NCBI GenBank assembly: GCA_020440645.1
Contig: JAGRNR010000009.1
Coordinates: forward strand, 5,092 to 69,091
Length of the DNA: 64,000 nucleotides
Source of the DNA: a bacterium
Lineage (GTDB): Bacteria; 4484-113; JAFGCY01
Reading direction: 5' to 3'
Shown: one piece after another, positions 1,628-31,953 of the stretch
How the letters are laid out: each line of letters starts with the position of its first letter
Position numbering within the stretch: the stretch's first letter is position 1
The notes under the pieces: model-generated
Told to the model about the DNA's origin: nothing
The model's input: only the letters and a program-made list of their open reading frames with translations
Database searches by the model: none
Program-made: the position numbers and the translations under genes

Positions 1628-3922
1628 CTAGTCATCCATGCCCAGCAGCTTCACGGTCTCCCGCGGGCCGGGCACATTGAGCCCTGTTTCCAGCAGCACG
1701 GCGATGCAGTCAACACTGCCCCCGCGCAACGCCCGGGCCAGCAGCTCCTGCTGCCGCTCCGGCGAAAGCTCCGTTCCTTCCTGCCCGGCCAGTGCGGCCA
1801 GCAGGTCACTGCGGTCAAGGTCGATGCAGCAGGCCATCGCGCCCAGCAGCGCATCCGGCGTTGACAATTCAGCCACCTGCGCGACCAGCTCGCGCTCAAC
1901 CCCGGGCCAGCACACGATCGTGCCCAGCAGGTCCGGCAGCATGTCGTCCCGGCCGGTCCAGGCGTCCGACAGCCCCGGATGCTCCGGGTTGTAGATCGCC
2001 AGCAGCACCTTCAGCACCGCCTGGTTCTGGCGGGAGCGCTCGGCATCCGGCATGAGCTCCGTGCCGGCAGCCCGTCCCTGGGTGGCGAAGTAGTCCAGCC
2101 CGCGGCCGGGGTCGGCCCCGAGCTGCAGCAGGTAGCGTACGTTGTCAATCCGGCCGGCACTGCAGGCGCTCACAAGCGCCGTCATCCCGGCGGAGCTGCG
2201 GCGCTCGACCGGCGTGCCGTAATCCAGCAGGGCCTGCAGGAAGCGGCGGTCCTCCAGCTTGGCGGCTTCCATCAGCGCCTGGTCCTGGGCCTCCTCCAGC
2301 CAGTGCTGGTCATGGGGCAGCACGCTGAACAGGAATTCCAGCAGGTCGAGGTTCTGGCGCTTGACGGCCACCGTCAGCGAACTGTCAACGGTCAGGTTCT
2401 CACTGATCAGCAGTTCCTGGTCAAAGAATGCCTTGCCTAGCTCGCTGTCCATTCCAAGCATTACAAGTGCCTGCATCAGCGGGGCCCGCCCGCTGGCAAT
2501 CACCGCCTTGAGCGCAGCCTTGTTGCCAGCCTGCCCGGCCAGCAGCATGCCCTTCTCCAGTTCGCGGTTGGCCTGCTCTTCAGTCAGTCCGAGCTTCGCC
2601 ACCGCATCATTGAATTCGGCGACTCGGCCGAGGGCCACGAGTGCCACCGGCTGCGGGGACTGCGCCTTCGCCAGCCAGGCCGTTGCCAGTTCATCACGGC
2701 CGTTGAGGATCGCGATGTGCAGCGCACTGCGGGACAGGAAGTTCTCATGCAGCGGGTCAATCCCGAGCTGGCTGAGCTCCTGCAGTTCCTTGTCACTGAG
2801 CAGGCCGTTGAGCAGCAGCAGGTTCAGTGCATTGTTGCCATCGCCGTCAGTGGCATTCAGGTCGAGACCCATGCGCCTCAGCATCTGGAAGTAGCGCAGG
2901 TCGTCAATTGCGGTGCAGACCGCGTATTCCTCGCCGGTCAGCTGGTCCAGTTCCTTCAGGCGCTCATCCAGCAGGCCCTTCAGCGCGCCTTCGCGTTGCA
3001 GCTTCTCCAGCAATTCAGTTGTGGTCATCGCAAGTGCACGGCGCGACAGTTCCAGCCGGGCGGCCCCGAGCAGCGGGGCTCGCATCTCCAGGCTGCGGCG
3101 CTGGCCACGGTAGGCCCGGCAGATGGAGACCAGTGGCTGGCGCGATCCGGCCGCGGCATAACGTGCCACATCGAAGCCATTGCTGCTGAGCAGCTTGAGC
3201 TTCGCCGCGTCCGACAGGCAGGCCCCGAGCAGTTCATCTCCGGCGGAGCTGTAGTCCCAGTGTGTGCCCGCTTCCAGCAGGCGACTGAGCTGCTCCGTAC
3301 TGGCGACCGGCACGATCCGGCTTATGAATGCAGTCCATTCCGCCGGGTCCGTGCTGGGCTTGCCCACTTCGAGCAGGCGGCCGAGCAGCTCAGGGTCAAT
3401 TCCTCCCGGCCGCTGCAGCATTTCGCCGGCCACGCCACTGCCGAGTAGCGCTCCACGCCCGGCCAGCAGTGCAGCCATGCCGTCGTTCCCGCTGTGCAGA
3501 GCACTGACCAGCAAGCGGTCCAGCCGCAGCTGTTCGAGGGTGCGGGGATAGGAATCAAGCAGCGTCTCCACCGCGTCCGCATTGTCCAGGACGACGGCGA
3601 GGCTAAGCAGGTCGGCCCCGAGCAGTTCAGTATCCGCAGTTACCGTTCCATTCAGGCAGTCCTCACGGAATGCCGGCGACCAGGCAAGGAAACCATCGAG
3701 CATGCTGCGCTCAGATGCGTCCAGATCCAGGCTTCCGGCACTGCCTATTTGCGCCTGCAGTACGTATGAGAGTCCATTGCCCCTGTCCGCGAGGTCGAGC
3801 TGGCCGATATGGGCCACTTCGGACTGGGACTCGCTGTACTGCGCTGCCAGGGAATTGCCGGCAGCAATAATTACCATGACGCAGGAAAGCAGTAACATGC
3901 GCAAAATCGCATGTCTTTGCAT
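1628..3922 (-). CDS. Ankyrin-repeat protein with N-terminal signal peptide
   Basis: ORF 1628..4021. Likely start is the internal M at 3922 (MQRHAILRMLLLSCVMVIIAAGNSLAAQ, a signal-peptide-like segment). Many tandem repeats of about 33 aa with the pattern G.D.N..D..G.TAL..A...G....V..LL..GA. Confidence 0.8.
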   Translation of the reverse strand: MQRHAILRMLLLSCVMVIIAAGNSLAAQYSESQSEVAHIGQLDLADRGNGLSYVLQAQIGSAGSLDLDASERSMLDGFLAWSPAFREDCLNGTVTADTELLGADLLSLAVVLDNADAVETLLDSYPRTLEQLRLDRLLVSALHSGNDGMAALLAGRGALLGSGVAGEMLQRPGGIDPELLGRLLEVGKPSTDPAEWTAFISRIVPVASTEQLSRLLEAGTHWDYSSAGDELLGACLSDAAKLKLLSSNGFDVARYAAAGSRQPLVSICRAYRGQRRSLEMRAPLLGAARLELSRRALAMTTTELLEKLQREGALKGLLDERLKELDQLTGEEYAVCTAIDDLRYFQMLRRMGLDLNATDGDGNNALNLLLLNGLLSDKELQELSQLGIDPLHENFLSRSALHIAILNGRDELATAWLAKAQSPQPVALVALGRVAEFNDAVAKLGLTEEQANRELEKGMLLAGQAGNKAALKAVIASGRAPLMQALVMLGMDSELGKAFFDQELLISENLTVDSSLTVAVKRQNLDLLEFLFSVLPHDQHWLEEAQDQALMEAAKLEDRRFLQALLDYGTPVERRSSAGMTALVSACSAGRIDNVRYLLQLGADPGRGLDYFATQGRAAGTELMPDAERSRQNQAVLKVLLAIYNPEHPGLSDAWTGRDDMLPDLLGTIVCWPGVERELVAQVAELSTPDALLGAMACCIDLDRSDLLAALAGQEGTELSPERQQELLARALRGGSVDCIAVLLETGLNVPGPRETVKLLGMDD

Positions 3923-4170
3923 CACATCAGCATTATTACCGGAAATTCTAGGGATGAAACCTAATGCGCATTTACACCCGCCATGGATGTTGATTTTCCC
4001 AACATTTAACTTCTGCCCCATCGCAAACCCGGAATTAACCGGTCTGATGAGAATGTAATGTGTCGAGCGCTGGTATGGTCTATTGGACCGTGTAACTCCC
4101 TTCCGGAGCTTTATCGCTAACAGGCATGCAATATGCCGTGGTGCTGATGCAACCTGCTCGTCAGGCTTGA

Positions 4171-8940: not shown

Positions 8941-9612
8941 ATGTTCATGCGACCGCCCGCTGATGCTGCATTGCACACGAGGCTTGACCAGGCATTCCTC
9001 AAGGCCGACCCGGCTGCCACGGTGGAGGCCCTGCGTGCCCAGGTGGAATTGGCAACACGCCTGCAGCTGCGCAGCCTGTGCGTGCCGCCGCTGCTGGCCG
9101 GCACGGTGAAGAAGCACAACCCGCAGCTCAGGGTATCGACCGTGGTGGCCTATCCGCTCGGGCTGGAAAGCGCCAGCTGCAAGTACTTCTCGATCGAGGA
9201 ACTGATGGAGCAGGGCATTGACGAGTTCGACGTCGTGCTGGACCTGTTCGCGCTCGTGAATGGCAACATGGCGAAGCTGGCGGCCGAGGCCGGCAAGCTC
9301 GGCACGCTCTGCCGCCGCCAGCAGCGGATGCTGAAGGTGATCATCGAAACCCCGATCCTCAATGAGGCTCGCATCACTGAAGTGGTACACGTGCTGCGCG
9401 ATGCCCCGGTGGACTGCGTCAAGACCAGCACCGGCTACGGCCGCGATGCCACGAAAGTCGAACATGTGGAGCTGATCCGCCGGGAACTGGGCGACGACAG
9501 GCTCGTGAAATGCAGCGGCGGAGTGCGCAGCAGGGAGGATGCCCTGCGGATGGTGGATGCCGGTGCGGACATCATCGGCACCAGCAGCGCCGAGGCGATC
9601 CTCGCTTCCTAG
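8941..9612 (+). CDS. deoC: Deoxyribose-phosphate aldolase
   Basis: Translation from ATG 8941: MFMRPPADAALHTRLDQAFLKADPAAT…VKTSTGYG…KCSGGVRS…. This is the DeoC/LacD aldolase fold with the Schiff-base Lys region (CVKTSTGY), about 224 aa. The ORF-track entry 8713..9612 extends upstream in the same frame. Confidence 0.85.
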   Translation: MFMRPPADAALHTRLDQAFLKADPAATVEALRAQVELATRLQLRSLCVPPLLAGTVKKHNPQLRVSTVVAYPLGLESASCKYFSIEELMEQGIDEFDVVLDLFALVNGNMAKLAAEAGKLGTLCRRQQRMLKVIIETPILNEARITEVVHVLRDAPVDCVKTSTGYGRDATKVEHVELIRRELGDDRLVKCSGGVRSREDALRMVDAGADIIGTSSAEAILAS

Positions 9613-10070
9613 ACCCCGATCTCCTCGCGGTCCATGCCGACCTGCTCCATCAGCGGGAATGCCATCCAGTACAGCAGGCAGGTGAATACGGCAGCGACGC
9701 TGCTCATCACCCCGGCCGGCCAGCGGTGGAAGTCATTGCTGAAGGTGAAGTACAGCCACATCCCGCCCAGGATCAGGCAGACAACGCCGGCGATTGCGAG
9801 GAAGCGGCTCGTGCCGCTGCTTTCCAGCGTGAACTGCCAGCGTTCATGGTCGCTCGTATCCATGTCCCAGTAGACCACGCCCAGCAGCAGCTGGTAGATT
9901 CCGCCGAGCACCAGCGCCCAGCTGCACATGTAGCTGAAGCCGATGATGCCGTGGTTGAAGCCCTTGAAGATCACCACCGTGTCGGCGGCGTCAATCCAGG
10001 GCAGGCGCGGCCCATTGACCAGCACGAATGCCGTGCAGACTATCGCAGCTATCAGGTAGAGGCTTCGCAT
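9609..10070 (-). CDS. Hypothetical integral membrane protein (4 TM, 153 aa)
   Basis: Hydrophobic helices (LYLIAAIVCTAFVLV; IIGFSYMCSWALVLGGIYQLLLGVVYW; FLAIAGVVCLILGGMWLYFTF; VMSSVAAVFTCLLYWMAF). No recognisable family. Its stop overlaps the deoC stop (convergent). Confidence 0.5.
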   Translation of the reverse strand: MRSLYLIAAIVCTAFVLVNGPRLPWIDAADTVVIFKGFNHGIIGFSYMCSWALVLGGIYQLLLGVVYWDMDTSDHERWQFTLESSGTSRFLAIAGVVCLILGGMWLYFTFSNDFHRWPAGVMSSVAAVFTCLLYWMAFPLMEQVGMDREEIGV

Positions 10071-10116
10071 CCCGTTTGATTCTATCCCGGAATCCGCTTG
10101 AATTCCGTGACACTAT

Positions 10117-11271
10117 TCAGACATTGTCCATGCCCACGGTGTTCCCGCCGCCCGGTCCAAGCGCATCCAGCCAGTCACAGAAAGCCTCCAGCTCCTGCAC
10201 GCTGATCTCATGGCCCCCATCAAAGCTGAAGCGGGTCACGGGGCAGCCCTGTTCCTCGAGGAAGTCCGCCAGCATCTCGCTTTCAGCCGGCTTCACGGCG
10301 CTGTCGCGCAGGCCATGCCCCGAGAACACCGGAAAATCGAGTTCGCGGCGCGGCAGTTCGTCATTCACCGCGAGCGTGGTGCTGAAGCAGGCCAGCGCGT
10401 CATACTGCCCGCTGCGGGTCAGGGCGCAGTAGCTCGCCAGCATCCCGCCCTGGCTGAAGCCGGCCAGCACCACAGGGCCGATGCGGAAATGCTCTCGCAT
10501 CCTGGCAACCACATTGCCGACGTACTCCGCATTCTGTTCGAGGTACTGCAGGCGCAGCTCATCGCTGAGGCTGCCCGGCCACCAGATGCGCGAGTCCTGG
10601 TGGTCGCTGAACACCGGGTAGGCCGCCGCCGGGGCCGCCATGATGTAGTCCCTGTGCGGCATCTGCTGGCGCCAGGCAGCGATGTTCTCCGGCGTACCGG
10701 TTGCCCCGTGCAGCATCACCACGAGCGTGTATTCGCGCTCGCTGTCAAAGTCTTCCGGCAGGAAGTAGCGCACGCTGCCCATGCTGCCCATCGGCACTAG
10801 CAGCGTCTCACCCATCTGCTCGCGGTAGCGCAGCTCACGGCTGCGCAGCACCTCGGCCGCCATCCGGAAGCTGTAGTCCTCGCGCACGTTGTCAAAGCGC
10901 GGGTCGTCAATCCGGGCACTGATGTTGCGCAGCCCGGCCTCCTGTGCGAGGCGCAGTGCATCCGATGCCAGGCTGGCCCGCCCGAGCTGGCCATAGCAGC
11001 CAGCCAGGCGCAGCAGCACCTCGAAATTCGAGGCATCGGACTGCAGGGCCGCGATGTAGCAGGCCGCAGCCTGTTCCAGTTCGCCCTGGTTCTCATGCTG
11101 CAGGCCCATCAGCACATAACTGGCCCGGTCGTTGTCCAGTACGGTGAGCGCATCCCCGGCCAGCGGGTCAATCTCATCCGGGCTCAGGTATTCCCACTGC
11201 GCGTGTGCCACCGACAGTGACAGCAGTGCGGCAAGCAGGGCCAGCATGGCAATCCGGTGGATCATCTTCAT
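10117..11271 (-). CDS. Secreted TPR-repeat / alpha-beta hydrolase (phospholipase-carboxylesterase type) protein
   Basis: ORF 10117..11295. Likely start at MKMIHRIAMLALLAALLSLSVAHA (signal peptide). N-terminal TPR-like helices, then an esterase core with the nucleophile elbow GFSQGG and a downstream His (FSGHGLRD). Confidence 0.7.
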   Translation of the reverse strand: MKMIHRIAMLALLAALLSLSVAHAQWEYLSPDEIDPLAGDALTVLDNDRASYVLMGLQHENQGELEQAAACYIAALQSDASNFEVLLRLAGCYGQLGRASLASDALRLAQEAGLRNISARIDDPRFDNVREDYSFRMAAEVLRSRELRYREQMGETLLVPMGSMGSVRYFLPEDFDSEREYTLVVMLHGATGTPENIAAWRQQMPHRDYIMAAPAAAYPVFSDHQDSRIWWPGSLSDELRLQYLEQNAEYVGNVVARMREHFRIGPVVLAGFSQGGMLASYCALTRSGQYDALACFSTTLAVNDELPRRELDFPVFSGHGLRDSAVKPAESEMLADFLEEQGCPVTRFSFDGGHEISVQELEAFCDWLDALGPGGGNTVGMDNV

Positions 11272-11311
11272 TTCCTCCACTCCCCCCTGGAGCATTATGA
11301 CAGCCGCAGCT

Positions 11312-12352
11312 TCAGTGGCGTGACCCGAGCTCTGACAGGATCTGCTTCAGGTCCGCCAGGCAACGCTGCTGCCCCGCCGGGCTGCGTCCGTCCACCTTGC
11401 GCACCAGGTCAAACCACGAGTAGGCCAGCACGTTGTCAGCCCCGGCATTGAAGCCGGCCTGCACCATCGCGCGCATCTGCTCGAGCGTCGGGAAGCTGGC
11501 GGAATTGCTGCCCTTGCCGTACATCCGCCAGTCGAAGCTCTGGAACACGAGGATCAGCGGCTGCGATGGCTTGCGCAGCTCATTGGCGCGGCGCACCAGT
11601 GCGTCCACCTCGTAGCTGATCGCCTCGATGCTGTGGCCATCATCCAGCCAATGCGCACCGACGGGGTAGCAGTCCACCATCACCCAGTCGCAGCAGTCGC
11701 GGATCATGCTGCGCATGCTCTGCTCGAACTGCTCATCATGCTGGAGGTAGTCCGGGGTGCCGTGCGGATAGTTGCGGCTATCAAAGCGCCGGTTCATCTC
11801 ATGGCGGTCCGGCAGCTGGTTCCAGACGCAGATCTGCGGCCGGTCGGGGTCGATGCGGCGGATGCTCTGGTACAGGTCGCGCATCTGCCCAAGCGACAGG
11901 CTGTATTTCTCCGTGCCGTCCACCCCGCTGAGCATCGGCAGGATCTCATCATGCACATACCAGGCCCCGATCTGCTCCTCGTTGCGCAGGGCCTCGACCT
12001 CAGCCAGCGCCCTGGCAACCTGTACGGAGGATGTGCGCGGGGTAGCACCTTCGAGGGCATTGAACAGGCTGTAGCCGATGCTGATCCCCTCGCGCCTGGC
12101 AATCGCCATGTAGGCATCGAAGTTGTCACGGTCGGCCGGGCCTTCCGGCCACTGCAGCGCGTAGTCAATCACGAAATTGACACCGCTGTCGGACAGCTCG
12201 CTGAACTGCTCGTTCACCTGAAGCAGGTTCCAGCAGCCCATCGAGATGTAACAGCCCACGAGCCGGTTGGGGTCTGGTGTGCTGTTGGCAGCCAGCGCCC
12301 TGCCACCGTTCAGGCAGGCGATCAGGATCAGGCTGGCCATCAGGGTCCTCAT
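11312..12352 (-). CDS. Secreted putative polysaccharide glycoside hydrolase (TIM-barrel; GH114/GH153-like, family uncertain)
   Basis: Signal peptide (MRTLMASLILIACLNGGRALA). About 320 aa periplasmic domain with alternating hydrophobic/acidic beta-alpha pattern. Stop overlaps the start of the downstream deacetylase by 4 nt (operon). Family assignment rests on context and composition, not a definitive motif. Confidence 0.45.
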   Translation of the reverse strand: MRTLMASLILIACLNGGRALAANSTPDPNRLVGCYISMGCWNLLQVNEQFSELSDSGVNFVIDYALQWPEGPADRDNFDAYMAIARREGISIGYSLFNALEGATPRTSSVQVARALAEVEALRNEEQIGAWYVHDEILPMLSGVDGTEKYSLSLGQMRDLYQSIRRIDPDRPQICVWNQLPDRHEMNRRFDSRNYPHGTPDYLQHDEQFEQSMRSMIRDCCDWVMVDCYPVGAHWLDDGHSIEAISYEVDALVRRANELRKPSQPLILVFQSFDWRMYGKGSNSASFPTLEQMRAMVQAGFNAGADNVLAYSWFDLVRKVDGRSPAGQQRCLADLKQILSELGSRH

Positions 12353-13452
12353 TGCTTTTGGTTGAGCTTGCGCATCACGACTTCAGTGGTGCCGGTCGGG
12401 ATGTTGGCAATCAGCATGTCGCCGCTGCGGCGCACAGAGCTGACCGGCTTGCCGTCGGCCAGCACCTCGGCCTGCTCCCAGTCAGCCGGGACGGCGCACT
12501 GCACGGAGATCACGTCCCAGTAGTTCTGGTAGTCCGGCAGCTGGCTGATCTTCGCAATCATGTAGTCCTTATCGAAATCAAGCAGTTCCAAGGTGAACTG
12601 CCGGCTCTCCAGCATGTAGCGGGCCACATTCCTGATCGGGGCCACCCAGACACGGTCCCCGAAAGATGCGAGGTACTCGTAATGTTCGACGAAGTCGTTG
12701 TAGGGGCGCGGACTCCAGCCCACACCGGGCTCGCCCGCCTCACCGATGCCGTGGCACTGCTCGATCATCCAGCCCTGCTTGCTGATGGCAAGGTCCGTCG
12801 TGCTGTTCCACATCCACATTGGCAGGATGTCCTGGTTGGCCCAGCTGTAGAGGTGCATCAGCGGCGGGTTGGCGGAGCAGTTGCGCTGGGCGATGTCCTC
12901 CCTCTCCTGCGGGCCACTGCGGGCGAACATGTATCCGAACTCAGCAGCGGTGTGGAAATTGCCGTAGTGGTACTGCTCATAGGGGTAGATCAGGGTATCC
13001 ACCTGGTCCAGGCCCTCGATGTTATCGAGCAGGAACCGGTGGCAGGTGCCGATCTCATCGCGCACCACTTCCTCGCTGCTTTCCGCCATGTTGAGGTGCG
13101 TCTTCGAATGGTTGGCGATCTCATGCCCATCGTCGAAGGCTTGCTGCAGCTGTTCCTTCCAGCCCTTGCGCTTGACGATGGTGGTGGAGACGATGCCGAG
13201 CGTGACCTTCCAGCCGTACTTGTCCCACAGCGGCATGCCCCGCTCCCAGTGGTCCAGCGAGCCGTCGTCGAAGGTCAGGCTGACCGCACCCTCCGCGCCG
13301 TTGTACCAGCGGCAGATTTCCGGCTTCGGGCGCCATCGCTCATCAGTCTGGGGCACCTGGTCCTTCTGCGGGATCACGATGATGTCTCCCTGGGCCAGCG
13401 CAGTGCCGCCCAGCAGCAGCATCAGCAGTAAAAGGGATAGTGTCTGTCTCAT
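12349..13452 (-). CDS. Polysaccharide deacetylase (carbohydrate esterase family 4, NodB homology domain), secreted
   Basis: Signal peptide (MRQTLSLLLLMLLLGGTALAQG). NodB motifs TFDDG (LTFDDGSLDHW) and HEIANHSKTH (His-His metal site). Confidence 0.8.
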   Translation of the reverse strand: MRQTLSLLLLMLLLGGTALAQGDIIVIPQKDQVPQTDERWRPKPEICRWYNGAEGAVSLTFDDGSLDHWERGMPLWDKYGWKVTLGIVSTTIVKRKGWKEQLQQAFDDGHEIANHSKTHLNMAESSEEVVRDEIGTCHRFLLDNIEGLDQVDTLIYPYEQYHYGNFHTAAEFGYMFARSGPQEREDIAQRNCSANPPLMHLYSWANQDILPMWMWNSTTDLAISKQGWMIEQCHGIGEAGEPGVGWSPRPYNDFVEHYEYLASFGDRVWVAPIRNVARYMLESRQFTLELLDFDKDYMIAKISQLPDYQNYWDVISVQCAVPADWEQAEVLADGKPVSSVRRSGDMLIANIPTGTTEVVMRKLNQKQ

Positions 13453-13530
13453 AGGCGTTGTCGGCTGGAGATTCTACCCGCGGACAGCCGTCCGCGCTTC
13501 AAATATGGATGGACTCGAAGCTAATTCCGT

Positions 13531-15027
13531 TCAGCGGAAGGGGTAAACAGGCACCTTGATCGGTGAGATCAGGTCGGCTTCCTTGCGCAGGATATTCGTC
13601 ACCACCGGGTAGGAACTGTGCCAGAACGGGAAACCGGTCGAACCCTGCACCTCTCGGCCGTAGAAGCTGCGGTTGATCTGCAGCGTAAGCTTGGTGTCCG
13701 CCGGGCCCATTGCCTTGCCGAACTCGGTCATCTCGCCTGCCATGTAGTAACTGTTGTAGTGGGTTTCCTTGCGCACGATGGCCGGGATTACCAGCGGCAG
13801 GTCGTGTCGGCGCATCTTGTCCTTGCCACTGTCGGTCAGCTTGAATTCGAAGTCCGCGAGGATCTGGACGGAAGGATCCGGACGAACGGTCACCACATCA
13901 AACCAGTAGGTGAAGGTGCTCGGGCGGCTGCCCTGCATCACGTCCATTTCCATGTAGTCGGTACGGGGCACGAACAACATGCCGCCCGGTGCCACGTCAT
14001 CCGCGTCCGTCAGCACGAAGAATTCGTCCTCGCCATCCTTGCACAGCAGGTAACCGGAGCCGGTCAGGTCCCAGTCCTTTCCATGCTTTTGCTTGTACAG
14101 CTCAAACAGCCACCAGGGCACATCAGTGACATCGCCGAAGTCCACGAAGTAACGACCGATCCAGTGGGTCCAGTCCACCCCGAAGATCTCTTCAAGCCGG
14201 TCCCGCAGTTCCTCATCCGTCGGGGATGCCAGGGTATTGAATTCAGCACAGATCGTGCGCCCACCCTGGTCGAGGAAGCCCTCGATTGCGGTGATCTCCT
14301 CAGGTTTCATGCCTCCGTAGATCTTCGGTGAGTAGATCGTATGTGCGATGTTATCGCCCCAATAGTCGCTGCGGAACTGCCAGTAGTCAGCGCTGTAGAC
14401 GCCATAGCTGTCACAGATGTAAAGCAGGTCACGGTCCGCAAGATCGGCGGAGTCGATGTAATCAAATCGCCAATGTACATCATTCTTGAGGCGGGCATCC
14501 TCCGCGGGATTGCTGCTGCTTGGCACCGGCCCGACGAAGTTCGGGTTGAATTCCTGCGAGAACATCGCGTTTTCCTGCTCAGGGGGCGCAAGGATCCTGT
14601 CATCCGGCGGCGGGTAGAAGCCGGTGTAGTCCAGGTCCTCCGCATAGAAGCGGTTGTCGGTCTGCTTGGTCGGGTCGACGAACTTGTTATTGGTCAGCAG
14701 CCAGAACAGGCCGCGGTGTTCGCGGTAGTCCTGGAACGGCACCGTCTTGTCCACGATCATCATCTTGAGCGGGATGTCCGGCGTACGCTCCCAGAACAGG
14801 TGCGGAATCAGCACGCAAAGGTAGATGATCAGCGCCAGGATCAGGATCGTGTGCAGGCGCCGGCTCGTGATGAAGGCCACAAGAAAGGGCTTCTTGCGCG
14901 GCTTGCCGATGCCTTCAGCTTCGCGCCGGTGGCGGGCCTTGCGGTCCGGCGGCGGCACGAGCGTGGCAGTGGCCGTTCCACCCGGCTGCTGCTCCTCCTG
15001 GTTGTCTCCCTTAATCAGGTCACTCAT
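13531..15027 (-). CDS. Membrane-anchored hypothetical protein (N-terminal TM, large extracytoplasmic domain) within the exopolysaccharide operon
   Basis: 498 aa. Basic, Pro-rich N-terminus, one TM (LHTILILALIIYLCVLIPHLFW), then a Trp/Tyr/Asp-rich soluble domain with no recognisable family. Sits between the GT2 synthase and the deacetylase. Confidence 0.6.
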   Translation of the reverse strand: MSDLIKGDNQEEQQPGGTATATLVPPPDRKARHRREAEGIGKPRKKPFLVAFITSRRLHTILILALIIYLCVLIPHLFWERTPDIPLKMMIVDKTVPFQDYREHRGLFWLLTNNKFVDPTKQTDNRFYAEDLDYTGFYPPPDDRILAPPEQENAMFSQEFNPNFVGPVPSSSNPAEDARLKNDVHWRFDYIDSADLADRDLLYICDSYGVYSADYWQFRSDYWGDNIAHTIYSPKIYGGMKPEEITAIEGFLDQGGRTICAEFNTLASPTDEELRDRLEEIFGVDWTHWIGRYFVDFGDVTDVPWWLFELYKQKHGKDWDLTGSGYLLCKDGEDEFFVLTDADDVAPGGMLFVPRTDYMEMDVMQGSRPSTFTYWFDVVTVRPDPSVQILADFEFKLTDSGKDKMRRHDLPLVIPAIVRKETHYNSYYMAGEMTEFGKAMGPADTKLTLQINRSFYGREVQGSTGFPFWHSSYPVVTNILRKEADLISPIKVPVYPFR

Positions 15028-15050
15028 ATCCAGTCACTTGCTCCCGTGGA

Positions 15051-16490
15051 TCAGGATCCTGCGGTACGGAATCCACCGCGCCGGATCGCACCCCACAGCT
15101 TGCGGAAGCCGCCGAGGTACTCAAGCATGGCCTGCAGGCGCCAGATCGCATTGATCTGGCGGAAGCCGAAGTTGTACAGGAAGCCGCCCCAGAGCAGCTT
15201 GAACAGGTCGGATGTCCGCTGGTAGCGGTGGAAGCTGAGCTCCTCCACGAGCACCGTGATCACGGTGAACATGAAGCCCAGTGACATGCTCAGCAGGATG
15301 AACATCAGCATCCATTCCAGCGAGAGCACACCGGCCCACCAGAAGATCACGATCAGCACGTAGCCGAACAGCTCGACGATGCAGCCCAGCATCTCGAATA
15401 TAAGGTAATAGGGCATGCCGAACATGCCCAGTGCGCCGAAGCGCGGGTTGAACATCATTTCGCCGTTGTAGCGCAGGCTGTCCACCAGGCCCTTCTGCCA
15501 GCGGCGGCGCTGGCCGGCGAGGCTCTTCATGTCCTCCGGCACCTCGGTCCAGCAGACCGGGTCCGGGTTGAAGAACATCTTGAATTCCTGCCGCTTCTTC
15601 TTGAAGATGCGGTTGAGGCGCACCACCAGCTCCATGTCCTCGCCGATGGTGTCCTCGCGATAGCCGCCGACCTCGATCACGGACTCCTTGTGGAACATCC
15701 CGAAGGCACCGGAGATCAGCAGCACCACACCCATCTGGGCGAAGGCGATGCGGCTGGAGAGGAATGTCATCAGGTACTCGACCGTCTGGGCCAGTGCCAG
15801 CCAGTTGGTGGCGATGTTCACTTCCTTGACGCGGCCGTAGTCCACCACGCAGTTGTTCGCCACGCGGATCACACCGCCGACGGCGATCATCGTGTCCGGA
15901 TGCTCAATGAAGGGACGCATCGTCTTCAGCAGGGCGTCGGAGTCGAGGATCGAATCCGCGTCCAGCGTACAGAAGTAGGGGTACTGGCTGACGTTGATGC
16001 CCACGTTGAGCGCACTGCTCTTGCCGCCGTTGGGCTTGTCCACCACCACGAGGTTAGGGTGCATGCGGCTTTCGTAGATCGCCTTGACCGGCTCGGTCTC
16101 GATCTTGCGCTGGTAGATCTTGCTCACCGGCACGAGGTCGAAGGCCTCAATCAGCACCTGCATGGTGTTGTCCTTCGAGCCGTCGTTGACCACGATCACC
16201 TCGAACTGCGGGTAATGCAGGGTCAGGAGCGAGCGCACCGACTCCATGATCACCTTCTCCTCGTTGTAGGCGGGACAGAGGATGCTCACGGGCTTGGTCA
16301 GCGATGTCTTGAACAGGGCGTGCAGGTCCACCACATTCACATAGTGGCGGTAGCGGCCGAGGTTCATGATGCCGATCAGGAAGAATGCAATATACGAAAT
16401 GATCAGGCCGAGGGTGTACAGGATGAAGAACCCCGAGAGCCAGAGGATAACGATGATCGCATAGCTGTTATCAAGGTCATAGCCAAACAT
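15051..16490 (-). CDS. Processive family-2 glycosyltransferase, PgaC/IcaA/NodC-like polysaccharide synthase
   Basis: N-terminal TM helices, then a GT-A domain (VIVVNDGSKDNT…TLDADSILD…) and the TED-like and Q-R-R-R-W signatures (TIGEDMELVVRL…LAGQRRRWQKG), followed by C-terminal TM helices. This is the canonical processive beta-glycosyltransferase layout. Confidence 0.85.
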   Translation of the reverse strand: MFGYDLDNSYAIIVILWLSGFFILYTLGLIISYIAFFLIGIMNLGRYRHYVNVVDLHALFKTSLTKPVSILCPAYNEEKVIMESVRSLLTLHYPQFEVIVVNDGSKDNTMQVLIEAFDLVPVSKIYQRKIETEPVKAIYESRMHPNLVVVDKPNGGKSSALNVGINVSQYPYFCTLDADSILDSDALLKTMRPFIEHPDTMIAVGGVIRVANNCVVDYGRVKEVNIATNWLALAQTVEYLMTFLSSRIAFAQMGVVLLISGAFGMFHKESVIEVGGYREDTIGEDMELVVRLNRIFKKKRQEFKMFFNPDPVCWTEVPEDMKSLAGQRRRWQKGLVDSLRYNGEMMFNPRFGALGMFGMPYYLIFEMLGCIVELFGYVLIVIFWWAGVLSLEWMLMFILLSMSLGFMFTVITVLVEELSFHRYQRTSDLFKLLWGGFLYNFGFRQINAIWRLQAMLEYLGGFRKLWGAIRRGGFRTAGS

Positions 16491-17629
16491 CAGTTATCAC
16501 CCTCCGTGTCACGGCTTCCCGGCAGCTCCCGCTCCCGGCTCGGGGTGGCGGCGGATTCAAGCTGCTCTTCCCCGAAGAAGCGGCTGAGGTTACCGTTGGA
16601 CCGCTCGAGCTGGTAATTGGCCACATCCCTGGCGAAGTCATCATCATCACGCCGGGCCTGGTGCAGGATCTCACCACCTCTGCGTCCATAGGCCGCCAGT
16701 GACTGGGCTGCGTTGCGGCGTACCCAGTAGCTCGGGTCGGACAGCGCATCCCGCAGGATCGGCAGGCCGTCCTTGACCTGCATGGTGCCCAGTGCCTTGA
16801 CGGCCTGGGCCCGGATCTCCCAGGAACGGTCCTTGGAAAGCCGCAGGAACTCGGGGATGCTGCGCGGGGAGGCGATCTTGCCCATCGACTTGATGGTGCG
16901 GATCACCTTTTCCTTATGGGAAGAGCGCAGCACCTCATGCAGCTGGTCCACCAGCCGGTATTCCTGCAGGTCGCCGACAAGGTCAATCGCCATCAGCTTG
17001 GACTCAAGGGCGAAATCCTGGTGCTCCAGCATCTGCTTGAGGGGGACAATGGCCTGGCCGCGCATCTTCTGCACAATTTCCACCAGGCGGGTGGTTTCCA
17101 TCAGTTCGGGCCGGTTGAGGATGCTCAATAGAGCGGTGCCGGCCTCGGGCGTACCAATCATTCCCATGCTGCGCGCGGCGGTGAAGCGTACTTCCATCCG
17201 CTTGTCGCGCAGGTTGTTTGACAGGATCGGCACCGTTTCCTTGAGTCCGTAGATGCCAAGCTGCATCGCGGCGATGTCACGGATGCGCCAGTCCCAGTTA
17301 TTGAGACGGCGGGCGGTGCGGTTGAGCAGTTTCAGGCGGTCAGCGAGGGTCAGGAGCTTCTTGCGCTCCGAGCCTGTCAGCTGGCGCAGCATCCCGAGGA
17401 TCATCTCCTCAGCGAGGTCGACGTGGTTGCCGATGCTGGAGATCATTTCCTCAATGGAGCTGTCACCGCTGAGGTAACGGGCGAACACGGGCAGGAGCTC
17501 GGCGCGGCGGTTGCTGGCCCATGTGTTGTGGCTGGCCGACATCATCCGCTGAACGACGATGATCAGGAACAGCAGCGCTGAGTTGAGGAAAATTCCCGCA
17601 ACCAGATATTGCACGCTGTCAGCAAACAT
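16490..17629 (-). CDS. HEAT/PBS-lyase repeat membrane protein
   Basis: N-terminal TM (YLVAGIFLNSALLFLIIVV) followed by repeated HEAT-like units (…WRIRDIAAMQLGIYG…VRFTAARSMGMIG…WEIRAQAVKALG…YWVRRNAAQSLAAYG…). Its TGA overlaps the ATG of the GT2 gene (ATGA, 16488-16492). Confidence 0.7.
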   Translation of the reverse strand: MFADSVQYLVAGIFLNSALLFLIIVVQRMMSASHNTWASNRRAELLPVFARYLSGDSSIEEMISSIGNHVDLAEEMILGMLRQLTGSERKKLLTLADRLKLLNRTARRLNNWDWRIRDIAAMQLGIYGLKETVPILSNNLRDKRMEVRFTAARSMGMIGTPEAGTALLSILNRPELMETTRLVEIVQKMRGQAIVPLKQMLEHQDFALESKLMAIDLVGDLQEYRLVDQLHEVLRSSHKEKVIRTIKSMGKIASPRSIPEFLRLSKDRSWEIRAQAVKALGTMQVKDGLPILRDALSDPSYWVRRNAAQSLAAYGRRGGEILHQARRDDDDFARDVANYQLERSNGNLSRFFGEEQLESAATPSRERELPGSRDTEGDN

Positions 17630-17697
17630 TGGTTAACCCCGCTCCGATCCTTTCTTTTTCCGGGCGATGCCCCGCCCGTCACTCCAACATTAGTACG

Positions 17698-18111
17698 TCA
17701 GCCTGCCTGTGCAGTACCTCTGACATGCTTCAGGGCGTTGTACAGTCTCGCAATCAGCACGTTGATGCTGAACGGGATGGTGACGTAGTCGACGCATCCC
17801 AGCCGGAACGCATTGAGAATGTCATCCTCATCCTCCCGGGCGCTGATCACGATCATCGCCCCGGGTTCGTTGACCTTCTCACGCTGCTGGATCTCCCTCA
17901 TCACCTGAAATCCATCCAATTTCTGGATGAGGATATCTATCAACAACAGGTCAAAGGTTTCCCGCTCCATCTGGTCGAGCGCTTCAATGCCGTCAACGGC
18001 CCGACTGACCCTGAAGCCCTGCCGTTCCAGCTTGTATGACAGAATGCCAAACAGACTGTCATCCTCGAGTACGACAAGGATCTTCGGGTTGGAGACTGGG
18101 GTAGAATCCAT
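17698..18111 (-). CDS. Single-domain response regulator (CheY-like receiver)
   Basis: ORF 17698..18171. Likely start MDSTPVSNPKILVVLEDD (acidic pocket DD), phospho-acceptor Asp in LLLIDILIQKLDG, conserved T/S region (IVISARED) and K region. First gene after an AT-rich promoter region. Confidence 0.75.
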   Translation of the reverse strand: MDSTPVSNPKILVVLEDDSLFGILSYKLERQGFRVSRAVDGIEALDQMERETFDLLLIDILIQKLDGFQVMREIQQREKVNEPGAMIVISAREDEDDILNAFRLGCVDYVTIPFSINVLIARLYNALKHVRGTAQAG

Positions 18112-18342
18112 TCCCAAAATCACCTTTCGATAGTATGTGCCCTGATTTGAGCGACTGATTCTACCACACACATATTTATATGTGAAACGATTTGATTGTA
18201 CATAATGTAATCTTAGTTTAACTAAAGTTTAATAATAGACAATATGAACAGTCAGTTTTCCCTGACTGTCAACACTAAGTGCAAGCACCTTGTTAATACA
18301 TGGTTTATCATTCTGGCAATACTCTGCTGCGCGGAGGAGCAC
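18112..18342. promoter_or_regulatory. AT-rich divergent intergenic promoter region between the EPS operon (minus) and the large glycoside hydrolase (plus)
   Basis: Local GC drops sharply (…ttatatgtgaaacgatttgattgtacataatgtaatcttagtttaactaaagtttaataatagacaatatgaac…) against a ~64% GC background. Flanked by divergently oriented gene starts. Confidence 0.5.
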
Positions 18343-21024: not shown

Positions 21025-21825
21025 GTGGAATCCACGGGATGGCTCACGGCAATGGATATTGCAAGCCTTGTAGGAGTGCTGATCTGCTTCGGCGGAGTGT
21101 TTGCAGGCTTCTCGATCGAGGGCGGGTCACCGACGCAGCTGATGGCTATCAGCGCTGCATGCATCGTGTTCGGCGGAGCCGGCGGGGCCACGATGGTGGC
21201 CTTCCCGCTGTCTACCTCGATCAACCTCTGGAAGGTGATCATGCAGTGCTTCATGCGCCCCAAGGTCGACCCGATCCCGGTGATCAAGAAGTTTGTCGAG
21301 TTCTCCGAGAAGGTGCGCCGCGAGGGCCTGCTTGTGCTGGAAGAGGATGCCAACAACGAAAGCGACCCCTTCCTGCGCAACGGCCTGCAGCTGGTGATCG
21401 ATGGCAATGACACCGAACTCGTGAAGGACATCCTGCATACGGACATCAAGTTCGTGGAGGAGCGCCACCACGTCGGCCAGGCCTACCTGCAGACGATGGC
21501 GGGCTTCACGCCGACCTTCGGGATCGTGGGCACCGTGATGGGCCTCGTGCTGGTGCTGTCAAACCTCTCCGACCCCGGCAGCCTCGGCCCGATGGTGGCG
21601 GCGGCATTCATCGCCACGCTCTATGGGGTGGGCAGTGCCAACGCCCTTTTCCTGCCATGGGCCTCCAAGCTGAAGATTGCCAGCAAGGAGGAGGTGCTCG
21701 TGCGCGAGATCATGGTGGAGGGCATCCTCTCGATCCAGGCCGGTGACAACCCGCGCATCGTGCAGGAGAAGCTCGCGGCATTCCTGCCGCCCAAGGAGCG
21801 TTCCCACGTCAAGCAGGAAGGCTGA
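21025..21825 (+). CDS. motA: Flagellar motor stator protein MotA (MotA/TolQ/ExbB family proton channel)
   Basis: Four TM helices in 2+2 arrangement with a large cytoplasmic loop. TM3-4 region …AGFTPTFGIVGTVMGLV…AAAFIATLYGVGSANALFLPWASKLK… is typical of MotA. Followed directly by motB. Confidence 0.75.
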   Translation: MESTGWLTAMDIASLVGVLICFGGVFAGFSIEGGSPTQLMAISAACIVFGGAGGATMVAFPLSTSINLWKVIMQCFMRPKVDPIPVIKKFVEFSEKVRREGLLVLEEDANNESDPFLRNGLQLVIDGNDTELVKDILHTDIKFVEERHHVGQAYLQTMAGFTPTFGIVGTVMGLVLVLSNLSDPGSLGPMVAAAFIATLYGVGSANALFLPWASKLKIASKEEVLVREIMVEGILSIQAGDNPRIVQEKLAAFLPPKERSHVKQEG

Positions 21826-21851
21826 CGGGGAAGCCCCGCGAGGAGTGATAC

Positions 21852-22784
21852 GTGTACATACCACAGGCACCACAAGGCAATGAAGGCGGCGATGAGCGCT
21901 GGCTGATCAGCTATGCTGACATGATCACGCTGCTCACCGTCGTGTTCATCATCCTGTTCTCGATGTCCAACATCGAGATGGAGAAGTTCAAGGCCCTCGC
22001 CGAGAGCATGACGGACGGCATGGGTGCCAACCGCAAGAGCACCACACTTGACCCCGAGCAGAGCATCGGGGAGGACGCCAGCACGACACCGATTGACATC
22101 GGCACGATCAGTGGCGGCGAGTCGCCCTCGATCCTGTTCCCCGAGCACCAGACCCCGATCCAGATCTTCCGCTTCCGCCGCATCATGGAGGGCGAGAACG
22201 GGGATGAGGGACTGCTGGAGAAGCTGCGCGACATCCTTGACAACGAAGCCCGCCGGGAAGGCGAGCAGATCATGCAGGAATTCGGGCACGACGAACGCGT
22301 CAGCATGCGCTTCACGGAACGCGGCATCGTGCTGACCTTCCTTGACGACCAGCTGATGTTCGACAGCGGCAGCGCCGACATGAAGCCGGGATTCCGTAAT
22401 GTGCTGGCAGCCCTCGGCTCGGAGCTGAACCGCCTGCCGAACTCGGTCGAGGTGCTGGGCCACACGGATGACCGGCCGATTGCCAGTGCCCGCTACCCCA
22501 GCAACTGGGAACTGTCAGCCGCACGCGCGGCAAGCGTTGCCAGGCTACTGATCGCCAATGGATTCCCGCGGGACAAGGTCAGCGTGGCCGGCTATGCCGA
22601 CACCCATCCGCTGGCGGGCAACGACAGCGTGCATGGGCGGGCCGCCAACCGCCGGGTGGAAATCGTGATCCTGCGGGGCTATAACGAACCGGCCGCGGAT
22701 GACACGGAGGAACCGGCCCAGCCGCTAGTCGGGCCACAGCCCAGCCCGGGCATGCCGGTGCACAGCCTGGGGGCGGGACACTGA
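21852..22784 (+). CDS. motB: Flagellar motor protein MotB (OmpA-like peptidoglycan-binding stator subunit)
   Basis: N-terminal WLISYADMITLLTVVFIILF (MotB TM with the conserved Asp) and a C-terminal OmpA-like domain (LGHTDDRPIASARYPSNWELSAARAASVARLL…NRRVEIVIL). Confidence 0.8.
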   Translation: MYIPQAPQGNEGGDERWLISYADMITLLTVVFIILFSMSNIEMEKFKALAESMTDGMGANRKSTTLDPEQSIGEDASTTPIDIGTISGGESPSILFPEHQTPIQIFRFRRIMEGENGDEGLLEKLRDILDNEARREGEQIMQEFGHDERVSMRFTERGIVLTFLDDQLMFDSGSADMKPGFRNVLAALGSELNRLPNSVEVLGHTDDRPIASARYPSNWELSAARAASVARLLIANGFPRDKVSVAGYADTHPLAGNDSVHGRAANRRVEIVILRGYNEPAADDTEEPAQPLVGPQPSPGMPVHSLGAGH

Positions 22785-31918: not shown

Positions 31919-31953
31919 CCACCTCCTGCTGTGTCGTCGTCATCTGCAAGTCG

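Follow-up and report, generated by a model that had tools for sequence, protein, structure and literature searches.

The window, a stretch of 64,000 nucleotides from a bacterium of the UBP7 lineage, carries seven co-directional open reading frames on its minus strand between 10117 and 18111 (Table 1). A sequence-only reading of this DNA had assigned domains to all seven, and those given to the receiver (REC), the HEAT-repeat protein, the glycosyltransferase (GT2), the 498-residue protein (X), the deacetylase (CE4) and the TPR-esterase (EST) stand. The label of 'secreted TIM-barrel hydrolase' for the 346-residue protein (P346) drew no support from Pfam, NCBIfam or PDB sequences, and has motif-level hints only. 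Although the genes within these limits are real, the span is incomplete, as the system also takes in the divergent gene for P843 and a gene for a small four-TM protein. The latter, called at the matching position and orientation in loci L004 and L090, is probably the last gene of the unit; the overlapping plus-strand ORF of 189 aa (9510-10079) was rejected as an antisense artefact.

Table 1. Genes and features of the locus, with positions in the window
Feature	Position	Strand	Basis
Predicted four-TM protein, 153 aa	9609..10070	-	Translation; 46 nt downstream of esterase
EST, secreted N-terminal TPR + α/β-hydrolase carboxylesterase, 392 aa	10117..11295	-	Abhydrolase_2, 57.8 bits
P346, secreted or possibly lipoprotein, 346 aa, rare unnamed family	11312..12352	-	No family match
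CE4 (NodB-type) secreted deacetylase, 367 aa	12349..13452	-	PF01522, 62 bits; signal peptide
X, bitopic membrane protein, 498 aa	13531..15027	-	One TM helix
GT2, processive-type polysaccharide synthase, 479 aa	15051..16490	-	Pfam GT2 families, motifs
HEAT-repeat membrane protein, 379 aa	16490..17629	-	HEAT_2, 110 bits
REC, stand-alone receiver without output domain, 137 aa	17698..18111	-	PF00072, 68 bits
Divergent intergenic region, AT-rich	18112..18243	.	Promoter-like site for operon
P843, secreted, N-terminal clan GH-A (β/α)8 glycanase-like domain, 843 aa	18244..20775	+	Fold comparison

The CE4 and P346 genes share the 4-nt overlap noted earlier at 12349-12352 (ATGA), and 16 nt separate P346 from the esterase. 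At 16490, where an ATGA had been claimed, the HEAT stop and the GT2 start in fact share 1 nt in the sequence TGATG. Between the genes, the operon strand shows no terminator-like site, the single minus-strand match lying inside the GT2 ORF (16445-16431). Upstream of the plausible REC start codon (ATG at 18111), a promoter-like site, TTCACA-17-TAGAAT with an extended TG (18186..18158, minus strand), was located by consensus match only, in a scan that returned 3 sites versus 4.0 expected by chance; the intergenic region gave no Rfam match and no riboswitch. We infer that the operon is a single transcription unit. Since the order REC-HEAT-GT2(-X) recurs across phyla, the clustering is not due to chance.

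GT2 matches the Pfam families PF00535, PF13641, PF13632 and Chitin_synth_2 (43 bits versus a cutoff of 27) and carries the motifs D103, D177-A-D179, G-E284-D285 and Q327RRRW331. The predicted topology has one or more TM segments at the N-terminus, then a GT-A domain in the cytoplasm, then a TM bundle at the C-terminus. The best NCBIfam model is TIGR03937 (PgaC_IcaA; 141.8 bits, E = 2.8e-41), and chitin synthase and NodC models also score. This top match, together with QRRRW, GED and the C-terminal TM bundle, bears out the earlier assignment to the processive PgaC/IcaA/NodC/chitin-synthase type; a Dpm1-like transferase identity was rejected on the same evidence. However, the score lies below the PgaC/IcaA equivalog cutoff of 422.3 bits. 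Identity to Escherichia coli PgaC is 24% over 372 aa, in a full-length alignment that pairs NDGS, DxD, ED and QxxRW, and in BLASTP against three E. coli synthases PgaC scored best (108 bits), ahead of BcsA (35.8 bits) and NfrB (28 bits, limited to the N-terminus). By these comparisons PgaC/IcaA is the nearest characterised family, of which GT2 is not itself a member. As PgaC/IcaA, chitin synthases and NodC are its closest characterised relatives, UDP-HexNAc would be the likeliest donor. A β-linked HexNAc polymer is a plausible product, while its identity as poly-β-1,6-GlcNAc (PNAG) is unproven. Homologues of GT2 number at least 5804 at E<=1e-20.

On the control side, REC retains the acceptor Asp59. 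Alignment with REC homologues of related loci showed Ile (TIPF) at the place of the conserved β5 Lys, and the loss of this residue makes canonical phospho-switching doubtful in this organism. The HEAT protein has a single N-terminal TM helix (residues 8-26) and a predicted cytoplasmic HEAT solenoid. Members of its family lie directly 5' of GT2 in 68 of 84 non-redundant loci, and a REC-containing gene precedes HEAT-GT2 in 58 of the 84; both arrangements occur in addition in the two GT2-anchored loci, L095 and L096. Regulator variants upstream of HEAT include REC-GGDEF-REC, in Bacillaceae, and Hpt-REC, and a known GT2-Hpt fusion protein (P0165) joins a phosphorelay domain to the synthase itself. 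We propose that the HEAT protein is an adaptor or regulatory subunit of the synthase.

X has no match in Pfam or NCBIfam. It consists of a basic cytoplasmic N-terminal tail, a TM helix near residues 56-80, and a periplasmic region, rich in invariant Trp, that comprises a GATase1/ThuA-like domain and a β-sandwich. There is no invariant Cys and no catalytic cysteine. A GT2-X fusion protein (P0079) has a topology that fits an N-in/C-out orientation. Relatives were found in 506 GTDB species genomes, among them members of Bacillaceae, Clostridia, Acidobacteriota, Bacteroidota, Myxococcota and the UBP7 lineage of the window itself. We propose that X is a co-subunit of the synthase, taking up or guiding the polymer as it is made; X genes with no GT2 next to them occur in archaea, Sericytochromatia and some Acidobacteriota, which indicates that X does not partner a synthase in every case.

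The sequence-only reading had treated REC, the HEAT protein and X as oddities in an operon built on the logic of pga/ica systems (GT2, CE4 and glycoside hydrolase). Gene-neighbourhood comparison changes this picture. Conserved together are REC, the HEAT membrane protein and GT2, usually with X and P843; REC-HEAT-GT2 is kept in X-anchored loci of Bacillota, Bacteroidota and the window's lineage (UBP7 / 'Planctomycetales' MAGs), and also in L095 and L096. Priestia megaterium is one species with such a locus (L065), made up of REC-GGDEF, HEAT, GT2, X and P843. By tblastn across 88 loci, GT2 was detected in 74 and P843 in 59, versus one locus for CE4, four for P346 and two for EST. CE4, P346 and EST are clade-specific accessories, and the full set is also present in L090, which lies outside the 88. 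The broader view of a polysaccharide-synthase operon of non-canonical composition is supported. No description of the core unit, which occurs in hundreds of species, was found in the literature searched.

P843, the system's conserved glycanase, had been missed earlier. Its annotated start may lie about 25 codons too early. An invariant Glu pair is located at β4 and β7 of the barrel, and the C-terminal part comprises β-sandwich domains. The gene is syntenic in L004, L090 and L091 and lies directly 3' of X in Bacillaceae; P843 belongs to the system. Its best structural neighbours, the β-1,3-glucan-active families GH157, GH158, GH72 and GH17 together with GH5 mannanases, act on β-glucans or mannans and not on HexNAc polymers. 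It is therefore possible, if rather doubtful, that the same machine makes a neutral β-glucan- or β-mannan-type product (e.g. β-1,3 or mixed-linkage) from which CE4 and the esterase strip O-acyl rather than N-acetyl groups. Some CE4 enzymes are O-deacetylases, and an esterase recurs beside P843-type genes, as in a Gemmatimonadota locus where an esterase flanks a P843-TPR fusion gene. However, substrate is not predictable from clan GH-A similarity, GT2 is far closer to PgaC than to BcsA and scores on chitin synthase and NodC models, and the locus holds no O-acyltransferase gene.

Like P843, the three accessory proteins bear signal peptides or TM anchors. CE4 carries TFDDG (60-64), HSKTH (115-119) and YPY, and is extended at its C-terminus by about 130 aa. 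It occurs in L009, the genome of the window itself, and in L090, but L004, a close relative, lacks it; the L091 locus has another, different gene with a CE4 domain nearby. P346 may be a TIM-barrel glycosidase-like enzyme with H134-D135-E136, judging from local matches to the acid/base region of GH158 (E = 1.6) and to the β8 region of P843 (hhalign probability 8%), both weak. EST also matches Esterase (29 bits) and, weakly, TPR models, with the motifs GFSQG (279-283) and GGHE (360-363), and is conserved in L004 and L090. These proteins, along with the 153-aa gene product, might be unrelated neighbours of a functional REC-HEAT-GT2(-X) module, for example scavengers of external polymers; the best NCBIfam match of EST is an extracellular PHA depolymerase (38 bits, well under the cutoff of 150). 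The absence of CE4, P346 and EST from most loci and the rarity of the P346 family (15 clusters at E<=1e-10 among 1.84 billion representatives) are consistent with this. We nevertheless consider it unlikely, as accessory order and orientation are equal in L009, L004 and L090, whose X proteins are only 68-70% identical, and P346 homologues follow X in L004 and L090 and, directly, in the more distant L006. The close junctions from CE4 to EST, free of terminator-like sites, point the same way.

Several features recall PgaABCD/IcaADBC: a membrane GT2 with D, DxD, ED and QxxRW whose nearest characterised family is PgaC/IcaA, a secreted CE4 that keeps its metal and catalytic motifs in the window's clade, and a glycoside hydrolase tied to the locus. 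The invariant D-E pair of P346 might likewise recall substrate-assisted HexNAc-ases. A genuine PNAG system with separate deacetylase and hydrolase seems improbable all the same. Besides the subthreshold model score and the low identity to PgaC, BLASTP confirmed the reported lack of homologues of PgaA, PgaD and the PgaB-type fusion, and no IcaD homologue or GH153 domain is present; CE4 matches PgaB over only 28 aa, and the 153-aa protein has no similarity to PgaD. CE4 is outside the conserved core here, missing from L004 and nearly all other loci, and the barrel of the conserved hydrolase belongs to clan GH-A, not to GH153 or GH20. REC, HEAT, X and the GH-A glycanase have no pga/ica counterpart, and control is apparently exerted by REC/Hpt rather than by c-di-GMP binding to PgaCD.

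Other synthase-dependent systems show partial parallels. The plan of BcsA-BcsB-BcsZ recurs in a processive GT2, a periplasmic protein anchored by one TM helix with a possible chain-guiding role (X in place of BcsB), a secreted glycanase dedicated to the system (P843 in place of BcsZ) and regulatory input at the synthase. However, GT2 lacks a PilZ domain and scores poorly against BcsA, P843 is not GH8, X is GATase1-like without similarity to BcsB at the sequence level (BLASTP), and a BcsC-type porin is missing. In the Pel system, the synthase PelF is of family GT4 and acts with PelD, PelE and PelG; no sequence similarity to the Pel or fungal GAG modification enzymes PelA and Agd3 was detected, and X itself contains neither a deacetylase nor a hydrolase domain. 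The Bacillus subtilis ydaJKLMN genes encode, in order, a glycosyl hydrolase, a GGDEF protein, YdaL (569 aa), the GT2 YdaM (420 aa) and YdaN (703 aa), an order and sizes that differ from those seen here when compared by description. This c-di-GMP-dependent operon, with its GT2 YdaM, large membrane-associated YdaL and YdaN of unassigned function, glycosyl hydrolase YdaJ and degenerate GGDEF receptor YdaK, directs an EPS of undefined identity (PMC13274460, PMC5422440, PMC7064775). The shared plan is a GT2 with large membrane-associated proteins, a glycosyl hydrolase and an operon-encoded signalling protein, and in Bacillaceae a REC-GGDEF-REC gene lies ahead of our locus; the papers cited describe no HEAT protein in yda. 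The more recently described NfrB-NfrA-YbcH of E. coli is a c-di-GMP-activated GT2 secretion system (PMC8669469). It too places a GT2 synthase under post-translational control by a signalling domain, but the match to NfrB is marginal and the locus lacks an MshEN domain and homologues of NfrA and YbcH.

The organism looks diderm (MotB/OmpA, Lol-like MacB/FtsX), and no outer-membrane porin or exporter was found in the locus. This would suit a GT2 that makes a periplasmic or cell-wall glycan or a lipid-linked sugar, with X, whose fold is common to OST48/WBP1, acting in a glycosylation pathway. We regard such a role as very unlikely, since QRRRW, GED and the C-terminal TM bundle are hallmarks of processive membrane synthases, the system keeps a dedicated secreted glycanase of endo type, and monoderm Bacillaceae carry the same core.

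In the secretion mechanism that we propose, the inner-membrane GT2 would polymerise a β-linked polysaccharide from a UDP-sugar and pass the chain through its own TM channel. X, tethered beside it by one TM helix in what may be a physical complex, would present its non-catalytic GATase1-like and β-sandwich domain to the emerging chain, in a role comparable to that of BcsB or PgaD. The HEAT protein would be a membrane-tethered cytoplasmic scaffold coupling the synthase to the stand-alone receiver, so that a phosphorelay could switch polymer output; Bacillaceae would use a REC-GGDEF protein as the partner, adding c-di-GMP. P843 may be the cognate retaining β-glycanase that trims or releases the polymer, and in the window's clade CE4, P346, the TPR-esterase and the small four-TM protein may have been added for modification after export. 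Overall, the locus is likely to represent an undescribed variant of synthase-dependent exopolysaccharide secretion, whose genes most likely serve to make and trim a secreted sugar polymer, probably under phosphorelay control via the HEAT adaptor.

The region that the sequence-only reading had described as an exopolysaccharide operon does contain seven co-directional minus-strand ORFs, running from a stand-alone receiver (REC) gene to a TPR-esterase gene. That description was largely right but incomplete, since two genes of the locus had been missed: the divergently transcribed gene for P843 and the gene for a four-TM protein of 153 aa. The latter is overlapped on the opposite strand by a longer ORF of 189 aa (9510-10079, +), which we rejected as an antisense artefact because its composition (rich in Arg, Ala, His and Gln) is typical of such artefacts in high-GC DNA. 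It is the four-TM protein that is kept in relatives, a gene of this size being called at the matching place in two of them (L004 and L090).

Genes of the exopolysaccharide locus in window coordinates
Gene product	Position	Strand	Features
REC	17698-18111	-	PF00072, 68 bits; ATG at 18111 behind a GAAAGG-type ribosome-binding site
HEAT protein	16490-17629	-	379 aa; HEAT_2, 110 bits; single N-terminal TM helix
GT2	15051-16490	-	479 aa; PF00535, PF13641, PF13632, Chitin_synth_2; TM segments at both ends
X	13531-15027	-	498 aa; one TM helix behind a basic N-tail; no Pfam or NCBIfam match
CE4	12349-13452	-	PF01522, 62 bits; TFDDG and HSKTH motifs; signal peptide
P346	11312-12352	-	346 aa; signal peptide or possible lipobox; no family match
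TPR-esterase	10117-11295	-	TPR and Abhydrolase_2; GFSQG
Four-TM protein	9609-10070	-	153 aa; 46 nt downstream of the esterase gene
P843	18244-20775	+	843-aa secreted protein, divergent from the operon

The gene junctions are tight. CE4 and P346 share a 4-nt ATGA overlap, as had been claimed, and the ATGA reported for the HEAT/GT2 junction at 16490 proved to be a TGATG with a 1-nt overlap; the remaining intergenic gaps are 16-78 nt. A terminator scan of the region gave no operon-strand terminator-like site at any gene junction, the sole minus-strand match lying within the GT2 ORF (16445-16431), and a promoter-like site upstream of the REC gene matched 10/12 and has an extended -10 element; taken as a whole, the promoter and terminator scans performed at chance level. 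An Rfam scan detected no element or riboswitch upstream of the operon, and a c-di-GMP riboswitch was rejected on this ground.

Synthase-dependent exopolysaccharide systems are built around a membrane-embedded processive GT2 that combines D, DxD, ED and QxxRW motifs with a C-terminal TM bundle, and the window GT2 has all of these (D103, D177-A-D179, G-E284-D285 and Q327RRRW331). Its best NCBIfam model is the PgaC_IcaA equivalog (TIGR03937), which scores 141.8 bits (E 2.8e-41) against a cutoff of 422.3, followed by models for XrtG-associated GT2 (95 bits), NodC (38) and CelA (36). Among E. coli proteins, PgaC scores 108 bits, BcsA 35.8 and NfrB 28; identity to PgaC is 24% over 372 aa, with all catalytic motifs aligned. 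By these comparisons the GT2 is predicted to be a processive-type synthase, kin to HexNAc polymerases, and is not a PgaC/IcaA orthologue. Its family is very large, counting no fewer than 5804 members at E<=1e-20, with representatives in Gemmatimonadota, Chloroflexota, Acidobacteriota and Bacteroidota.

The proposal that the locus makes a PNAG-like polymer is only partly supported. In its favour, a CE4 domain of the NodB deacetylase type is present as described, with motifs at TFDDG 60-64, HSKTH 115-119 and YPY 156-158; motif inspection did not reveal an evident motif 3 Arg. Against it, the GT2 falls short of the PgaC/IcaA cutoff, and similarity to PgaA and PgaD was lacking. The absence of a PgaA-like porin was confirmed, no β-barrel candidate being found in the locus. 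For PgaD, BLASTP found no similarity for any compared locus protein, in a set that used PgaD rather than IcaD as reference and held the antisense ORF in place of the 153-aa four-TM protein, which is confined to the close clade. The CE4 shares one 28-aa match only with PgaB, and a GH153 domain is absent from it. Of the possible products, a polymer containing HexNAc is the likeliest candidate, with a roughly even chance; PNAG in particular is a reading that homology by itself is unlikely to establish. Tests for the defining components of pga/ica, bcs, pel and nfr did not find them, and the locus belongs to none of these systems, its mode of working being that of a synthase-dependent system.

To place the locus among its relatives, window proteins were compared by tblastn with 88 fetched loci. 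The GT2 was found in 74 and P843 in 59, as against four for P346, two for the esterase and a single one, the window's own genome, for CE4. ORF clustering of 84 non-redundant loci placed a HEAT-family gene directly before the GT2 in 68 and found a REC-containing gene in 58. Gene orders vary around this arrangement. REC, HEAT, GT2 and X follow one another in L005 and L006, which come from more distant 'Planctomycetales' or unclassified MAGs; Fictibacillus has REC-GGDEF-REC, HEAT, GT2 and X, and in other Bacillaceae a P843 homologue comes immediately after this core. A further locus reads Hpt-REC, HEAT, GT2, X, unknown, TPR, and two GT2-anchored loci, picked without the use of X, show REC-HEAT-GT2 and no X. 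From these orders and counts we take the core to be REC-HEAT-GT2, usually with X and P843. Two fusion proteins tie parts of the locus together: P0079 joins a GT2, a TM helix and an X ectodomain, and P0165 is a GT2 with a C-terminal Hpt domain.

Niabella departs from this pattern in having REC, HEAT, GT2, a sulfatase-family protein, TPR-YaiO and X. In N. drilacis (L002, 3735-11176) the genes between GT2 and X encode a 688-aa member of the PF00884 sulfatase/alkaline-phosphatase superfamily and a TPR-YaiO β-barrel, an insert that hints at phospho-substituent modification and an outer-membrane exporter, neither of which is in the window locus.

Closer to the window, L004 (X 68% identical) has every gene of the locus but CE4, and L090 (X 69%), fetched after the tblastn survey, has the full architecture including CE4. 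L091 (X 42%) keeps the divergent P843, REC, HEAT, GT2 and X, and has a different CE4-containing gene approximately 6 kb away. As CE4 is missing from L004 and from nearly all loci surveyed by tblastn, its role as a system-defining gene was rejected on synteny. It counts among the additions peculiar to the clade, together with P346, the esterase and the 153-aa protein. The GxSxG and GGHE motifs of the esterase are intact, and its best NCBIfam model, an extracellular PHA depolymerase, scores far below cutoff.

X is 98% and its neighbouring genes are 90-100% identical to CP060262.1, a complete MAG chromosome labelled 'Planctomycetales bacterium isolate HK-STAS-UBP7_A-1'. Flanking MotA/MotB(OmpA) and MacB/FtsX pairs suggest that the host cell is diderm. 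The MotA/MotB(OmpA) stator pair adjoins P843 in the window (21025-22784, +), in L004 (2292-4021) and in L090 (1250-2997), so that synteny of stator and polysaccharide locus is kept in all three close genomes; a FliL-like gene follows MotA/MotB in the relatives. Elsewhere in the window, two large ankyrin-repeat proteins of 797 and 776 aa are encoded at 1628-4021 (-) and 57978-60308 (+), the surroundings of the second showing a local GC dip (0.567 at 58-60 kb). Between 43454 and 56775, secreted proteins with multiple PKD domains (699, 697 and 940 aa) form a cluster beside a 1232-aa subtilase; two of them carry Sde0182_C cellulose-binding-like and PPC domains. A strong positive AT skew (0.15-0.19) at 28000-37000 coincides with minus-strand genes for membrane subunits of a nuo-type NADH:quinone oxidoreductase.

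Turning to X, a word-indexed protein search detected 102 homologues, and a peptide pattern (EFN..SPT) recovered relatives in 506 of 185,579 GTDB species genomes. Carriers of the pattern include many Bacillaceae (Priestia megaterium, Neobacillus, Metabacillus and Peribacillus), Cohnella, Clostridium, Acidobacteriota, Myxococcota, Sericytochromatia and archaea of the Methanofastidiosa and Thermococci; X relatives also occur in Bacteroidota according to the gene table. A tblastn search of plasmids gave one match, unannotated, on a Paenibacillus megaplasmid. X has a GATase1/ThuA-like fold, and a glutamine amidotransferase-type enzyme was considered for it. We rejected this because the homologue alignment contains no invariant cysteine, and hence no Cys-His-Glu triad of class I glutamine amidotransferases. 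The invariant residues are instead H104, D206, Y208, E262, N264, R292 and several Trp, and its fold likenesses include the middle domain of GH42 enzymes as well as OST48/WBP1 and IFT52 (GIFT domain). The evidence points away from an amidotransferase and towards a module that binds or handles carbohydrate. Its topology is probably N-in/C-out, judging from the basic N-tail and the GT2-X fusion architecture. Members of the family also stand among unrelated metabolic genes, with no neighbouring GT2, in archaea (L017, L033, L047 and L060; Methanofastidiosa and Thermococci), and do so too in some Acidobacteriota and in Sericytochromatia (L018, L029, L036 and L050); from their occurrence in these lineages, the family has a role beyond the synthase.

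A co-encoded glycoside hydrolase or lyase for the polymer is another feature of synthase-dependent systems, and the window locus has a predicted one in P843. This protein shows the features of clan GH-A, namely a (β/α)8 barrel with a Glu after β4 (acid/base) and a Glu on β7 (nucleophile), and with conservation of an Arg on β2, a His-x-Tyr motif on β6 and a Trp on β8. P843, P346 and X gave nothing significant when scanned against Pfam, NCBIfam and PADLOC; P843 and P346 have no Pfam match even at E<=10, no existing Pfam GH family fits them, and PDB searches with single sequences and a P346 profile were also without significant result. In Gemmatimonadota and Acidobacteriota, P843 homologues occur as fusions with TPR repeats (roughly 880-1000 aa; proteins P0246-P0342), and in one Gemmatimonadota locus (L089, 3811-13275) such a protein lies beside a PF00756 esterase and a histidine kinase/REC gene cluster, away from any GT2.

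The secreted TIM-barrel hydrolase of the sequence-only reading corresponds to P346, for which that assignment found no backing in Pfam, NCBIfam or significant PDB matches. P346 belongs to a very rare family, for which a search of 1.84 billion representatives yielded 15 clusters at E<=1e-10; H134-D135-E136, D222, D227-x-Y229 and Q271 are invariant in it. In a non-significant profile match (E 1.6), HDE lines up with GNE, the acid/base motif of a GH158 enzyme. P346 was rejected as a simple paralogue of P843, as neither BLASTP nor hhalign gave significant homology, the latter pairing the C-terminal helix-strand of P346 with α7-β8 of P843 at a probability of 8%. By analogy, we hypothesize that in a TIM barrel with D135/E136 at β4, Q271 would lie at β7 in the nucleophile position, and that a D-E pair lacking a nucleophile would fit substrate-assisted HexNAc-ases.

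Regulation sets the locus apart from synthase-dependent systems that carry PilZ, PgaCD, PelD, Alg44 or MshEN c-di-GMP receptors: Pfam and NCBIfam scans found no c-di-GMP receptor domain (PilZ, GGDEF I-site or MshEN) in any window protein. REC and HEAT proteins are there in its stead, and in the Bacillaceae locus examined (L001, Fictibacillus) REC-GGDEF-REC takes this position. The window REC retains the acceptor Asp59 and Ser90 and lacks the β5 Lys of canonical CheY-like receivers, which is replaced by Ile (TIPF, 111-114). TIPF is shared by the REC proteins of the window and of L004, its closest relative, alone, all other aligned loci having TKPF, and both proteins read DILIQKLDG where D-x-x-M-P-x-x-DG is usual. 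On these substitutions, the two may be phosphorylation-independent or atypical receivers.

A full-text literature search returned no description of a HEAT, GT2 and REC polysaccharide system, the one candidate paper with a mention of HEAT proving irrelevant; this absence is weak evidence given that most subscription journals lay outside the search. The closest conceptual analogue, likened by gene content as described rather than by sequence, is B. subtilis ydaJKLMN, in which a GT2 and a hydrolase are combined with two large membrane proteins of unknown function and a signalling protein encoded in the operon (PMC13274460, PMC5422440, PMC7064775). The locus exemplifies a widespread, apparently uncharacterised variant of synthase-dependent exopolysaccharide machinery, to which clade-specific modification enzymes have been added.

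How such a machine might work can be outlined. The GT2 would polymerise and translocate a β-linked polymer, and X, anchored beside it, would take the chain in the periplasm in a BcsB- or PgaD-like role, as gene adjacency and the GT2-X fusion suggest. The HEAT protein may be a membrane-tethered cytoplasmic solenoid joining synthase to receiver protein. Synthesis would be gated by phosphorelay signals, or by c-di-GMP in systems with a REC-GGDEF partner; HEAT-coupled gating is suggested by the REC-HEAT-GT2 order, a REC without DNA-binding output and the GT2-Hpt fusion. P843 would trim or release the polymer, which in the window clade may be deacetylated by CE4, cut by P346 and possibly de-O-acylated by the TPR-esterase.

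Few systems inform the understanding of synthase-dependent secretion, namely those for cellulose, alginate, PNAG and Pel and the more recent addition Nfr, and c-di-GMP switches on nearly all. As a tentative proposal, which we regard as possible rather than probable, REC-HEAT-GT2, usually with X and an unclassified GH-A glycanase, forms a distinct and widespread class absent from the searchable literature, in which a phosphorelay (stand-alone REC or GT2-fused Hpt) acts directly on the synthase complex with no c-di-GMP receptor domain, and whose polymer is not yet characterised. The module holds three protein families without a Pfam model (X, P843 and P346), and its signalling partner, a REC or Hpt phosphorelay element, is proposed to be tethered through the HEAT-repeat membrane protein. 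If true, this would amount to a new way of regulating the synthesis of biofilm matrix, a synthase co-subunit of new fold and a new glycoside hydrolase family, possibly with a new polymer. As the carriers of the module number in the hundreds of species and include Bacillaceae that can be cultured and manipulated genetically, among them Priestia megaterium (L065, NZ_CP058255.1, about 4.457-4.478 Mb), these questions would be open to model organisms and not just to the uncultured UBP7 bacterium from which the window derives.
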